Virus record (IMG/VR): IMGVR_UViG_3300035703_000022
Span: 32,001 to 96,000 of that record
Origin: a virus
Direction: 5' to 3' (one strand)
DNA length: 64,000 nucleotides
Shown here: one piece after another, positions 7,899-50,848 of the stretch
Position numbering within the stretch: the first letter of the stretch is position 1
Layout of the letters: every line of letters begins with the position of its first letter
The notes under the pieces: generated by a model
What the model saw: only the letters and a program-made list of their open reading frames with translations
What the model was told of the DNA's origin: nothing
Database searches by the model: none
Position numbers and translations under genes: made by a program

Positions 7899-7927
7899 GA
7901 TTATACATAATCTCTACTAATTATAGA

Positions 7928-7958
7928 CAAAAAAAGAGGGGGAGTCAAGTCCCCCTCT
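7928..7958 (-). terminator. terminator ending the riboswitch-controlled small-ORF operon
   Basis: AGAGGGGGACTTGACTCCCCTCT followed by T run. Confidence 0.8.
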
Positions 7959-7962
7959 AATA

Positions 7963-8064
7963 TTAAGCAACTTGAGGTTGCTTTGCCATATTCAGTTGTG
8001 CATTATGAAGGAGTTGTTCCTTCTTTGCCTTTTTCTTAAGATAACGAACGAAGTAAGTGTTCAT
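7963..8064 (-). CDS. 33-aa basic peptide coupled to the DUF4278 gene
   Basis: MNTYFVRYLKKKAKKEQLLHNAQLNMAKQPQVA; ATGA overlap; GGAGG SD. Confidence 0.7.
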   Translation of the reverse strand: MNTYFVRYLKKKAKKEQLLHNAQLNMAKQPQVA

Positions 8065-8198
8065 TTATGCCCCTCCTTTACAAACTTAATACCACGATAG
8101 GTTTCGTTGTATTGTTGGGGTTGTTGCATCATTTGCTGTTGATATGCGATACGCTTTTCAGTATCATATTCAACGCCACGATATACGACTTTAGACAT
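8061..8198 (-). CDS. DUF4278-family small protein (45 aa)
   Basis: MSKVVYRGVEYD...TYRGIKF double YRG motif; AGGAG SD. Confidence 0.85.
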   Translation of the reverse strand: MSKVVYRGVEYDTEKRIAYQQQMMQQPQQYNETYRGIKFVKEGHK

Positions 8199-8230
8199 TA
8201 GGGTTCTCCTTAGTTTTTTAAGTTAAAGAG

Positions 8231-8402
8231 CGTTCCTTCAGTCGGCTTTTGCGTCTTGGAAACAACCTTTCTTGGTTACCTGTTTAATCTCCCATACAAT
8301 ATCATTCTTCTGTTGAAGACTTAATTCTGGGTGAGTTATCACTCTACCAATAATAAACTGTGCCTGTAGACAAGTTAAGAAGAGTGCTTCCATAGATGAA
8401 CG
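8231..8402 (-). ncRNA. glnA-type glutamine riboswitch aptamer 2 with ~150-nt P2 insertion
   Basis: 5' CGTTCATC ... 3' GACGCAAAAGCCGACTGAAGGAACG matches the glnA RNA consensus as recalled. Confidence 0.8.
8238..8393 (-). CDS. 51-aa ORF nested within riboswitch aptamer 2
   Basis: MEALFLTCLQAQFIIGRVITHPELSLQQKNDIVWEIKQVTKKGCFQDAKAD*; 156 nt, no internal stop. Confidence 0.7.
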   Translation of the reverse strand: MEALFLTCLQAQFIIGRVITHPELSLQQKNDIVWEIKQVTKKGCFQDAKAD

Positions 8403-8405
8403 ATC

Positions 8406-8445
8406 CGTTCCGAGTCGGCTTACTTCCGTCCCATAGGGATGAACG
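8406..8445 (-). ncRNA. glnA-type glutamine riboswitch aptamer 1
   Basis: CGTTCATCCCTATGGGACGGAAGTAAGCCGACTCGGAACG: P1 CGTTC/GAACG, P2 hairpin, GGAAGTAAG. Confidence 0.8.
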
Positions 8446-8452
8446 TAAGGTC

Positions 8453-8481
8453 ATTATAGACCTATTGACTTATATATGCAA
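8453..8481 (-). promoter_or_regulatory. sigma70 promoter for the riboswitch/DUF4278 transcript
   Basis: TTGCAT-17nt-TATAAT ending 7 nt before aptamer 1. Confidence 0.8.
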
Positions 8482-31964: not shown

Positions 31965-33026
31965 TTAGAGTGCATTACCTCGTGGTAGAACTTCCTCTGG
32001 GAACACAAAGTTCTCATGCGGTTGATCTACGGGTGCCATCCAAGCACGGAGACCTTCATTCAACAGAATGTTCTTAGTGTAGAAGGTTTCAAACTCTGGG
32101 TCCTCTGCTGCACGAATCTCCTGACTTACAAAGTCGTAAGCACGAAGATTAAGGGCAAGACCAATGATACCAATACTGGAAGTCCACAGACCCATGACAG
32201 GAACAAATAGCATGAAGAAATGAAGCCAACGCTTGTTACTAAAAGCAATACCAAATATCTGTGACCAGAAACGGTTTGCAGTAACCATTGAATACGTTTC
32301 TTCTTCCTGTGTAGGTTCAAATGCTTTGAAAGTGTTTGCCTTATCGCCATCTTCAAATAGAGTATTTTCTACAGTTGCTCCATGAATTGCACAGAGCAGT
32401 GCTCCTCCTAGTATACCAGCAACTCCCATCATATGGAAGGGGTTGAGAGTCCAGTTGTGGAAACCCTGAAGGAATAGAAGGAAGCGAAAGATAGCAGCGA
32501 CACCGAAAGAGGGTGCAAAGAACCAACTGGATTGTCCCAGAGGATACATCAGGAACACAGAAACAAATACTGCGATAGGACCAGAGAATGCGATTGCATT
32601 ATAAGGACGGATACCCACCAGGCGAGCAATCTCAAACTGGCGAAGCATAAATCCAATCAGAGCGAAAGATCCGTGGAGCGCCACAAAAGGCCAGAGTCCC
32701 CCAAGTTGGAACCACCTGACAATATCCCCTTGAGACTCAGGACCCCAAAGTAGAAGAAGAGAATGACCCATAGCATCTGCAGGCGTTGACACAGCTGCTG
32801 TAAGGAAATTAGCGCCCTCAAGGTAACTAGACGCCAACCCGTGGGTGTACCAACTTGTAACAAACGTCGTGCCAGTAAGCCAGCCACCAAGGGCAAGATA
32901 AGCAGTGGGAAAAAGTAATAGTCCAGACCAACCCACAAATACAAAGCGATCTCGTTTAAGCCAGTCATCCAGGACATCGAACCATCCTCGTTGTGAAATA
33001 GGTTGTGAAAGTGTTGAAGAAGTCAT
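31965..33026 (-). CDS. psbD: photosystem II D2 protein
   Basis: [22 protein letters not shown]...[10 protein letters not shown]. Confidence 0.99.
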
Positions 33027-36399: not shown

Positions 36400-36500
36400 T
36401 AAAACGTTAGTAAGACCATCAGGGAAATGGTGGAGTTACTATGTTCCCGCCACCCTCAGGCGGGATATGAGAGACGTAATTTATACACCCTAGAGGTCCC
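36400..36500 (-). ncRNA. structured psbA 5' leader, PhotoRC-II-like RNA
   Basis: TCCCGCC-TGAGGGT-GGCGGGA and ACCAT-TTCCCTG-ATGGT hairpins directly before psbA; family name from recall. Confidence 0.6.
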
Positions 36501-36632
36501 GGTTTGCGGGGTGTTTATCAATGTTAAGATTTATGAGAAATCCGTAACATTTGTTTACCTATTTATCATACTACGGTTTCCAGAAAGAGTCAAGAGCCTA
36601 GACAAAAAAAAATCCCCTTGCGGGAGAAGAGA

Positions 36633-50746: not shown

Positions 50747-50848
50747 GCTCAGGCTCGCCACTTGTTTTGAGTACGAGAAAACAAGAAACTCGGCGGGGTT
50801 AACCCCATCCGCACCAGGGCACGATTAACGTCTGTCCGAGACGGGCAT
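50747..50848 (-). ncRNA. manA/wcaG-like cyanophage structured RNA (intact module)
   Basis: CGTCT/AGACG hairpin, CTGGTGCGGA, GGGG/CCCC, CTTGTTTT/AAAACAAG, TGGCG. Confidence 0.6.

Follow-up and report, generated by a model that had tools for sequence, protein, structure and literature searches.

The minus strand of a 64,000-nucleotide stretch of viral DNA (positions 32,001 to 96,000 of IMG/VR record IMGVR_UViG_3300035703_000022, hereafter 'the window') carries a gene of 51 codons nested inside a riboswitch aptamer of the glnA (glutamine-I) type. Two such units stand in tandem ahead of a gene for a small DUF4278-like protein: the first, unit A, is compact, and the second, unit B, is split by the nested gene (Table 1). 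The arrangement is a real, widespread and apparently undescribed variant of a known riboswitch. Taken as a whole, the locus is probably best explained as the leader of a small early cyanophage operon, in which a two-unit riboswitch of the glutamine-I type precedes a DUF4278 (IF17-like) gene, helix P2 of the second unit is replaced by a helix that encloses a gene, and the two small proteins would be subject to a reciprocal switch. The source of the window is a T4-like cyanomyovirus, and the closest named relatives of the locus are the freshwater and estuarine Synechococcus phages DSL-LC02, S-SRM01 and DSL-LC03 and the Prochlorococcus phages P-HM1 and P-HM2.

Unit B follows unit A after a linker of three nucleotides (nt), GAT, and opens with CGTTCA at 8402-8397. 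Its 3′ core, GACGCAAAAGCCGACTGAAGGAACG at 8255-8231, comprises ACGCAAAAGCCGACUGAAG and the P1 strand GAACG and ends at 8231. An earlier note on this DNA, made from the letters alone, had placed the two halves of this aptamer about 150 nt apart, with an intact open reading frame (ORF) of 51 codons between them, a start codon in the P2 stem and terminal codons that double as the conserved 3′ core. All of this holds on the minus strand: the ATG (8393-8391) lies within the 5′ arm of P2 (8396-8385), the TGA stop (8240-8238) falls inside the core, and the last five codons together with the stop are the conserved core itself.

For a wider view, a viral contig collection was scanned with the core patterns of both unit types, which yielded at least 120 loci each. 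The counts given here and below come from these fixed core patterns, refer to the matches listed and are not estimates of prevalence. The 127 B-type cores, which include the named phages and the window, comprise 71 split units (143-200 nt from CGTTCA to the core), 51 compact units and 5 without upstream DNA. In 70 of the 71 split units, an ATG 9-11 nt after CGTTCA opens a frame that runs into the core, with three of these frames opening further upstream as well; the 71st (L072) holds an intact ORF whose TAA stands just ahead of the core. Together with the 43 split A-type units described below, an intact ORF is present in 114 of 114 split units, i.e. the stops or frameshifts in homologous inserts that would have counted against the nested gene were not seen. 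In S-SRM01 (L002 797-829), the in-core TGA is changed to GGA, and the frame continues for five more codons to a TAA in the anti-Shine-Dalgarno segment CTCTTTAA.

The frame also bears the marks of selection on its product. All 68 unique B-type inserts are open in the nested frame as against one and none in the other two frames, and only 2.0% of mononucleotide shuffles of these inserts stay open. Variability over the central codons is highest at the third codon position (0.18, 0.11 and 0.34 for positions 1, 2 and 3; 23 sequences), and the same order of 3 > 1 > 2 is found within the window's own length class (0.26, 0.14 and 0.34; 11 sequences). The alignment of homologous loci that the earlier note had called for shows a conserved frame and ratios of nonsynonymous to synonymous divergence (dN/dS) of 0.19 (171 pairs) and, for the window's class, 0.24 (38 pairs), at a dS of about 1.3. 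When 63 nested proteins that are 20-80% identical to the window's are aligned, two cysteines (C8 and C44) never vary; the invariance of the C-terminal DAKAD tail in this alignment was imposed by the search pattern and is set by the RNA. Judged by these patterns of substitution, purifying selection acts on the insert, which is a real protein-coding gene.

The RNA around the gene is constrained as well. In the window, the P2 arm TCTATGGAAGCA (8396-8385) pairs with TGTTTCCAAGA (8264-8254) with one bulged A; this duplex amounts to -12.4 kcal/mol, and the helix appears in the minimum free energy (MFE) fold as well as in the centroid fold. When 111 unique split units of the two types were evaluated individually, anchored on the conserved flanks, cognate arms formed 6.26 consecutive anchored pairs compared to 3.66 for non-cognate arms, with duplex energies of -10.06 and -5.82 kcal/mol, respectively. 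Position 3 of the helix is CG in 68, UA in 40 and UG in 3 of the 111 units, without any mismatch; position 4 is AU in 41, UA in 29, CG in 16, UG in 11 and GC in 1, with 13 mismatches; and position 5 is AU in 58, UA in 42, UG in 6 and CG in 2, with 3 mismatches. At least six distinct complementary pairs of arms occur (e.g. TCTAT/ATAGA, TCCTT/AAGGA, TCCTC/GAGGA and TCCCA/TGGGA). These counts are of sequences and not of independent events, meaning that kinship inflates them, while the number of compensated arm types is unaffected. Column-wise counting of pairs on an alignment (A1) was dropped, as the P2 register shifts between subfamilies because MAFFT right-aligns the ATG. By its covariation, P2 of unit B is a long-range helix that encloses the gene.

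The nested protein belongs to PHROG 504, a family of no assigned function (E 1.9e-5 and 25.3 bits for the window's protein, with relatives reaching E 9e-16), and its 86 homologue clusters are all unnamed or 'hypothetical'. AlphaFold2, run with an alignment, gave a mean predicted local distance difference test score of 86.6 with helices at residues 8-19 and 26-38, i.e. the protein is predicted to be a two-helix hairpin with two cysteines. None of the 63 family members matches Pfam. Fold searches with the model found no significant counterpart in the PDB, where the best hit (E 0.75) was to generic two-helix mini-domains; the hits in BFVD were all uncharacterised cyanophage proteins, and those in the ESM Atlas were all unnamed clusters. 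In 401 cyanobacterial genomes, the family was not found beyond chance-level partial matches; eight of these genomes gave weak partial profile matches of 18-25 bits, mostly within long unrelated frames. The best of them (L369 1435-1650, minus strand) is a helical protein of 71 amino acids (aa) with only one cysteine, which appears antitoxin-like because its gene overlaps one for a RelE/YoeB-like toxin, and the match was judged coincidental. A regulatory leader peptide of the mgtL type, for which no selection on the product is expected, does not fit the dN/dS of 0.19-0.24, the invariant cysteines and the confident model, even though a regulatory role for the act of translation, additional to that of the product, is possible.

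The compact first aptamer, which the earlier note had put at 8406-8445, is readily located: CGUUC (8445-8441) pairs with GAACG (8410-8406) to form P1, the P2 hairpin is UCCC-UAU-GGGA and the core is CGGAAGUAAGCCGACUCG, giving the order CGTTC, short P2 hairpin, CGGAAGTAAGCCGACTCG and GAACG. In a permissive cmscan run, the match to the covariance model RF01739 was full-length (model positions 1-53) and the only one in the 138.5-kb genome record, and homologous units of relatives scored 28.9-35.6 bits against a gathering score of 35; at the gathering threshold, the Rfam scan of the window reported no glnA match. The glutamine-II model RF01704 gave only 16.8 bits for unit A. At the junction of unit A, CG is aligned to the consensus GAAG with a 2-nt deletion, and CGGAAGUA is retained.

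Unit B was not reported by cmscan with RF01739 even at E ≤ 10 and is thus no member of the family by gathering score; likewise, none of the split B units in L001-L004 and L006 was reported at E ≤ 1. We attribute the miss to the 150-nt insert. Seven natural units that lack the insert and have an identical core score 32.7-38.1 bits with RF01739, three of them at or above 35, and an insert-less unit in L005 matches as well. These natural sequences answer the question behind the in-silico deletion that the earlier note had suggested as a check. In S-CREM1, two compact units occupy the matching place, of which the second has the window's variant core and scores 33.5 bits; the authors of that genome annotated the two units as glnA riboswitch (PMC9964418). 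Unit B carries CGCAAAAG where the consensus has CGGAAGUA, with B-type cores aligning CGCAA--A to CGGAAGUA. Of the two strands of the consensus junction (CGGAAGUA after P2 and GAAG before P1, the loop E region), each unit therefore has one. The glutamine-II sequences printed in PMC6698751 carry an ACGCA similar to the variant of unit B. According to the structural description in the same article, the ligand contacts of glutamine-I are the C1:G59 pair, C58 and G22 (Huang et al. 2019, PMC6698751; 5DDP numbering), and all four positions are present in both units as the first C of CGUUC, the last C and the G of GAACG and the G of the post-P2 CG. Unit B also has the P1 strands CGUUC and GAACG with an adjoining closed P2. 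Going by motifs and pairing, the host RNA is thus a glnA-type unit in every testable respect except for the covariance score, which is defeated by the insert, and both units may bind glutamine. A PreQ1 match at 8204-8242 (18.2 bits, E 0.31) was discarded as a chance match to the A-rich region of the Shine-Dalgarno (SD) sequence.

Downstream of the core, the anti-SD segment directly follows P1 of unit B and forms a 7-bp hairpin with the SD, whose unpaired probability in the free ensemble is 0.01; relatives share the platform sequence CTCTTTAAC...TAAGGAG. The gene behind it had been taken by the earlier note for a DUF4278 gene, and this is borne out at the level of the family, in which 67 of 70 members match DUF4278 at E ≤ 0.01 (best 1.2e-7), while the window's own copy, at 19.8 bits and E 0.001, stays under the curated cut-off of 25.3. 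Judged by its family, the downstream protein is DUF4278-like and akin to the domain found in IF17, the inactivating factor of glutamine synthetase in cyanobacteria. Among the units with enough downstream DNA, 62 of 66 split and 47 of 48 compact ones have a DUF4278-like gene with the N-terminal YRG motif behind them, and a clear SD is also present in 60 and 44 of these cases, respectively. The association of glutamine-I riboswitches with DUF4278/IF17-like genes, as described in the text of PMC6212724, is thus found here both for the window's downstream ORF and for 67 of the 70 homologues. In the Synechocystis gifB leader, glutamine is described as an ON switch, and melting of a helix beside P1 that blocks the ribosome-binding site was proposed (Klahn et al. 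2018, PMC6212724). By analogy, the platform of the window resembles the one proposed for gifB.

How might two proteins be read from such a leader? The initiation region of the nested ORF is made of aptamer elements only, i.e. the 3′ part of unit A, the 3-nt linker, the 5′ strand of unit B P1 and the 5′ arm of P2, and a ribosome finishing the ORF occupies the 3′ arm of P2 and the core. Because its start and end regions are aptamer strands, the folded unit and translation of the nested ORF should exclude each other. This mutual exclusion, which the earlier note had proposed, is supported by the overlaps of the anatomy, while we infer its direction and its dependence on glutamine. In a simple thermodynamic model, the AUG is unpaired with a probability of 0.93-0.95 in transcripts without the 3′ arm as against 0.35 in the full leader, and this low pairing suggests a co-transcriptional window for ribosome loading. 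Before the 3′ arm is transcribed, the start codon would be open and ribosomes could load. Once the 3′ arm and the core have been made, the unit would fold, and glutamine would stabilise the fold and keep more ribosomes from starting on the nested gene. If the gifB leader is a guide, glutamine would open the anti-SD/SD hairpin as well and switch on the DUF4278-like gene. Each ribosome that reads through the 3′ arm and stops in the core would, in turn, unfold the sensor. The outcome would be a reciprocal, glutamine-dependent output of two small proteins from one leader. A more far-reaching version, which we entertain but would not put at even chances, is that glutamine picks the product (the nested two-cysteine hairpin when low, the IF17-like DUF4278 protein when high), that ribosome traffic resets the switch, that the P2 loops are cassette sites for a two-cysteine superfamily and that phage riboswitches are commoner than surveyed.

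Several observations weigh against this account and should be read together. The nested gene has no SD. Unit A, at 34.0 bits, falls one bit short of the Rfam cut-off of 35, and unit B escapes cmscan altogether. GAAG is missing from unit A and GGAAGUA from unit B, and because each misses part of the consensus junction, either unit alone may be an incompetent sensor. The whole-leader fold is no stabler than those of shuffled sequences (z = -1.03), and enforcing the aptamer helices moves the accessibility of the AUG only from 0.35 to 0.34 and that of the SD only from 0.01 to 0.15, so the thermodynamic model itself shows no switch. P1 is invariant in the sample, partly since the search patterns fixed it, and therefore offers no covariation and does not fix the topology. 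Finally, the contigs from RNA libraries that cover the locus (see below) are strandless, come from relatives and possibly represent DNA.

Other readings of the leader differ in what they make of the same landmarks. Under translational coupling, unit A would be the working riboswitch for the nested gene, terminating ribosomes would open the anti-SD/SD hairpin and both proteins would be made together. The spacing lends itself to this, since the distance from the stop is 7 nt to the anti-SD (8230-8224) and 39 nt to the next ATG, the SD is nearly always paired in the free ensemble and the nested AUG comes 12 nt past the P1 3′ strand of unit A (8405-8394), a usual position for a riboswitch-controlled start; in S-SRM01, moreover, the stop is lost and the frame enters the anti-SD. 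Yet a terminating ribosome with the footprint usually assumed for it would touch only the first 1-2 nt of the 7-bp anti-SD helix, the downstream gene has a strong SD of its own, and relatives without an insert use the same platform. The covariation of P2 further indicates selection for a closing helix over the start codon, for which pure coupling has no need, and we regard this reading as unlikely. More doubtful still is a relic sensor, in which unit B no longer binds glutamine and its halves only encode the protein tail, serve the platform and mask the start codon for autoregulation or stability of the small mRNA. While the departure of unit B from the consensus at CGGAAGUA, its escape from cmscan and a DAKAD tail fixed by the RNA would suit a relic, the same variant core occurs in compact non-coding units that reach 38.1 bits with RF01739, the four published ligand-contact positions are kept, and the core is invariant across very divergent nested proteins. 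The similar ACGCA of the glutamine-II sequences as printed (PMC6698751) also speaks against decay. That the nested frame is untranslated, be it a product of chance or a by-product of RNA-level constraint, would account for the missing SD and for the fact that the annotators of DSL-LC03 did not call the ORF, but it is hard to believe in view of the 114 intact frames out of 114 listed, the closure of the other two frames in 67 and 68 of the 68 unique inserts, a dN/dS of about 0.2 at saturated dS, the two cysteines kept across 20-80% identity and the confident predicted fold.

A different question is whether the two units stand side by side or interlock. The earlier note had described two tandem aptamers, and while both units are present, they may form one obligate composite with complementary departures from the consensus. 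In such a composite, an outer P1 would join the 5′ strand of unit A to the 3′ strand of unit B, the remaining two P1 strands (3′ in A, 5′ in B) would form the local hairpin GAACG-GAU-CGUUC, and P2 of unit B would still enclose the gene, making for a single fold and a single sensor. All four P1 strands are identical and both pairings are feasible, which is why the two topologies look alike in the present data. The linker measures 3-5 nt, the size of a hairpin loop, in all 83 phage tandems listed compared to 6-24 nt in 20 cellular tandems; the next unit lies within 8 nt of an A-type unit in 115 of 117 cases listed; unit A keeps CGGAAGUA and lacks GAAG, while unit B keeps GAAG and lacks GGAAGUA. 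The MFE fold also draws the inner hairpin, although a drawn hairpin of 5 bp is weak evidence. Against interlocking, either unit by itself comes close to the Rfam cut-off as an ordinary aptamer, and many marine B cores have UAAAG rather than UGAAG, which weakens the need for a canonical GAA strand from unit B; with P1 invariant, covariation argues neither for nor against. On balance, we see interlocking as a serious contender that nonetheless falls clearly short of an even chance. The conclusion of a nested gene is independent of this choice, since the ORF lies within P2 of unit B whichever topology applies.

Nested genes are not confined to unit B. The 125 A-type cores comprise 80 compact and 43 split units and 2 without upstream DNA. 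In 22 of the 43 split A units, an ORF of 64-77 aa ends in GRK and the TAA of a conserved AAGTAAG (the 'GC 429' type of P-HM1, PHROG 6471); in the other 21, an intact ORF of 61-69 aa ends 1-13 nt ahead of the core, and 18 of these belong to a signal-peptide-like class. This third class of nested ORF (66-69 aa, MTKALLLLAWVPLLS...C...C; loci in Table 1) has a signal-peptide-like N-terminus and two cysteines and no PHROG match. Both units are split in P-HM1 (L004 412-615 and 645-821) and P-HM2 (L006 218-421 and 451-627), where a 67-aa ORF (GC 429, PHROG 6471) that ends with the TAA of AAGTAAG fills unit A and a 58-aa ORF (GC 541, PHROG 504) fills unit B; the Rfam scan of these two loci reported no glutamine aptamer. 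Among unique loci that could be parsed for both units, A/B was compact/compact in 21, compact/split in 32, split/compact in 16 and split/split in 14. Pairs of one split and one compact unit whose downstream proteins are at least 90% identical number 110, six of them at 100%, and the window's own downstream protein is identical at 44 of 45 positions to those of L061 and L104, where unit B is compact and unit A holds an ORF of the signal-peptide class. The core stays invariant across very divergent nested proteins. As far as such comparisons of loci can tell, the P2 loops of both units are interchangeable sites for small genes in many cyanomyoviruses.

In many B-type cores of marine origin, GAC-TAA-AGG replaces GAC-TGA-AGG (L132, L133, L139, L142, L147, L148, L152, L155 and L168), a G-to-A change that preserves the stop. 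This variant alone is no proof of selection on the stop because it is also found in compact units without an ORF. In cellular genomes, none of 141 consensus-type cores, found with a pattern that differed from the phage patterns, contains a nested ORF. Three cyanobacterial units (L250, L253 and L312) have an unusually long P2, in which 86-109 nt separate CGTTC from the core; it shows 3-10 anchored pairs and lacks an ATG at the start. By their sequence, cellular P2 helices tolerate long non-coding insertions. In SAR116, SAR86 and other marine proteobacteria, consensus-type glnA aptamers stand in tandem and even in threes, with linkers of 6-24 nt (Table 1).

Contigs from four metatranscriptome libraries that are 85-99% like the window, i.e. 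stem from relatives, cover both cores and the DUF4278-like gene; they carry no strand or end information and may derive from DNA. Three of them bridge unit A into the nested ORF (X15 8277-8415, X16 8294-8430 and X18 8258-8406), and others join 8254/8255 to 8395/8396, which corresponds to the insert-less form. The main text of the infection transcriptome of P-HM2 (PMC5082946) makes no mention of the genes in question (PHM2_179-181).

With respect to known systems, full-text literature searches returned no description of an ORF inside a glutamine or any other riboswitch aptamer, in agreement with the earlier note, although supplements might list long-P2 variants. Two units for the same ligand in one leader are familiar from tandem glycine aptamers. 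The 20 cellular glnA tandems sampled have two consensus-type cores (as the search pattern required), linkers of 6-24 nt and no nested ORF, whereas the units of the phage leader are non-equivalent and either can hold a gene. Structured RNAs that accommodate whole ORFs, and do so with cassette-like variation, are known from the group I introns of phage T4, where homing-endonuclease ORFs sit in peripheral loops and translation and folding can interfere. The window differs from these introns in that the host RNA is a metabolite sensor, the ORF overlaps the conserved core and no nuclease or mobility function is evident. Tandem glnA RNAs, likewise with two same-ligand sensor units in one leader, are mentioned in the available text of Weinberg et al. 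(2010, PMC2864571), with nothing further of relevance there.

A close counterpart is the glutamine-I riboswitch itself (RF01739), as described for the Synechocystis gifB/IF17 leader (PMC6212724). The two share P1 (CGUUC/GAACG), the position of P2, a small P3 and the ligand contacts, and both precede a DUF4278 gene and have a short helix beside P1 that can mask the ribosome-binding site. By comparison with the gifB leader as described there, one P2 of the window is a long-range helix around a gene of 51 codons, the core doubles as codons and stop, and A and B form an obligate pair with a linker of 3-5 nt and complementary departures from the consensus, the split unit being missed by covariance-model scans. 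The glutamine-II riboswitch (Downstream-peptide motif, RF01704), in the account of PMC6698751, binds the same ligand in a virtually identical pocket, has an ACGCA-type segment as does unit B and precedes small DUF4278-like ORFs in marine picocyanobacteria; it differs from the window in its pseudoknot architecture and in having its ORF downstream rather than enclosed. The nearest documented precedent that we found for the translated element is the upstream ORF mgtL in the Salmonella mgtA leader, which, as summarised in a review (PMC12360218), is likewise a translated ORF in a ligand-sensing leader whose translation remodels the fold. There, the expression platform encodes mgtL as a short sensor peptide, and it is the act of translation that matters. 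The ORF of the window, by contrast, encodes a conserved protein family under purifying selection, lies inside the aptamer hairpin and overlaps the ligand-binding core.

Riboswitch aptamers are usually regarded as compact, non-coding domains that precede the genes under their control. In this leader, one set of nucleotides would serve as ligand-binding core, helix arm, start codon and last codons, an extreme overlap of RNA and protein constraints and a natural design in which ligand sensing must compete with translation. The survey of McCown et al. (2017, PMC5473149), going by its available text, listed no more than two glutamine aptamers from cyanophage genomes and came to the view that riboswitches are seldom used by phages; the present scans, with at least 120 viral loci each, alter this picture. 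If the more far-reaching version given above is true, phage riboswitches would be far commoner than surveys report and masked from covariance-model scans by their inserts. The locus also draws attention to a family of small phage proteins, so far unstudied, that would be tied to the nitrogen status of the host, encoded beside a relative of the glutamine-synthetase inactivating factor.

Table 1. Features of the leader and its operon in the window, followed by two sets of loci referred to in the text.
Feature	Position or loci	Strand	Basis
Candidate early promoter, TTGCAT (8481-8476), 17-nt spacer, TATAAT (8458-8453)	8453..8481	-	Read from sequence
Unit A, compact glnA-type (glutamine-I) aptamer	8402..8447	-	RF01739, 34.0 bits, E 1.1e-5
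Unit B, split glnA-type aptamer	8231..8402	-	5′ half, P2 arms and 3′ core read from sequence
Nested 51-codon gene, MEALFLTC...DAKAD, PHROG 504	8238..8393	-	ORF call, profile match
Expression platform, anti-SD CUCUUUA (8230-8224) paired with SD UAAGGAG (8212-8206)	8206..8230	-	MFE and centroid folds
DUF4278-like gene, 45 aa, two YRG motifs, strong SD	8061..8198	-	Pfam DUF4278 (PF14105), PHROG 5049 E 5e-12
33-codon ORF, last of the small operon	7963..8064	-	ORF list; no Pfam or PHROG family
Intrinsic terminator, 9-bp stem with 6 G-C pairs, then T run	7935..7958	-	Terminator scan
Third-class inserts in unit A	L145, L146, L151, L153, L154, L176, L177, L180, L183, L195, L204, L208, L218, L229, L230, L234, L240, L243		
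Cellular tandem or triple glnA loci	L256, L261, L265, L267, L288, L293, L314, L318, L326, L329-L331, L336		

Transcription of the operon is predicted to start at about 8446, immediately ahead of unit A. Of the promoter claimed in the earlier note, the letters are present, yet its -35 element agrees with TTGACA at only 3 of 6 positions, and because of this poor fit the promoter scan omitted it from its list; the homologous place in DSL-LC03 reads TTGACT-17-TATAAT. At the other end of the operon, the 33-codon ORF overlaps the stop of the DUF4278-like gene (ATGA) and is shared by close relatives and by S-SRM01, whose annotation includes it. A strong promoter-like site, TTGACT-17-TATAAT (11 of 12 positions; window 7920-7948, minus strand), overlaps the stem and T-run of the operon terminator and precedes the next small ORF (7898-7731). 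Elsewhere in the window, the Rfam scan at the gathering threshold found a PhotoRC-II RNA (81.5 bits, 36431-36526, minus strand), a wcaG RNA (58.1 bits, 50747-50845, minus strand) and 27 tRNA matches; the latter nearly all lie at 51.7-56.8 kb and all share the minus strand with the PhotoRC-II and wcaG RNAs (region 50.7-56.8 kb).

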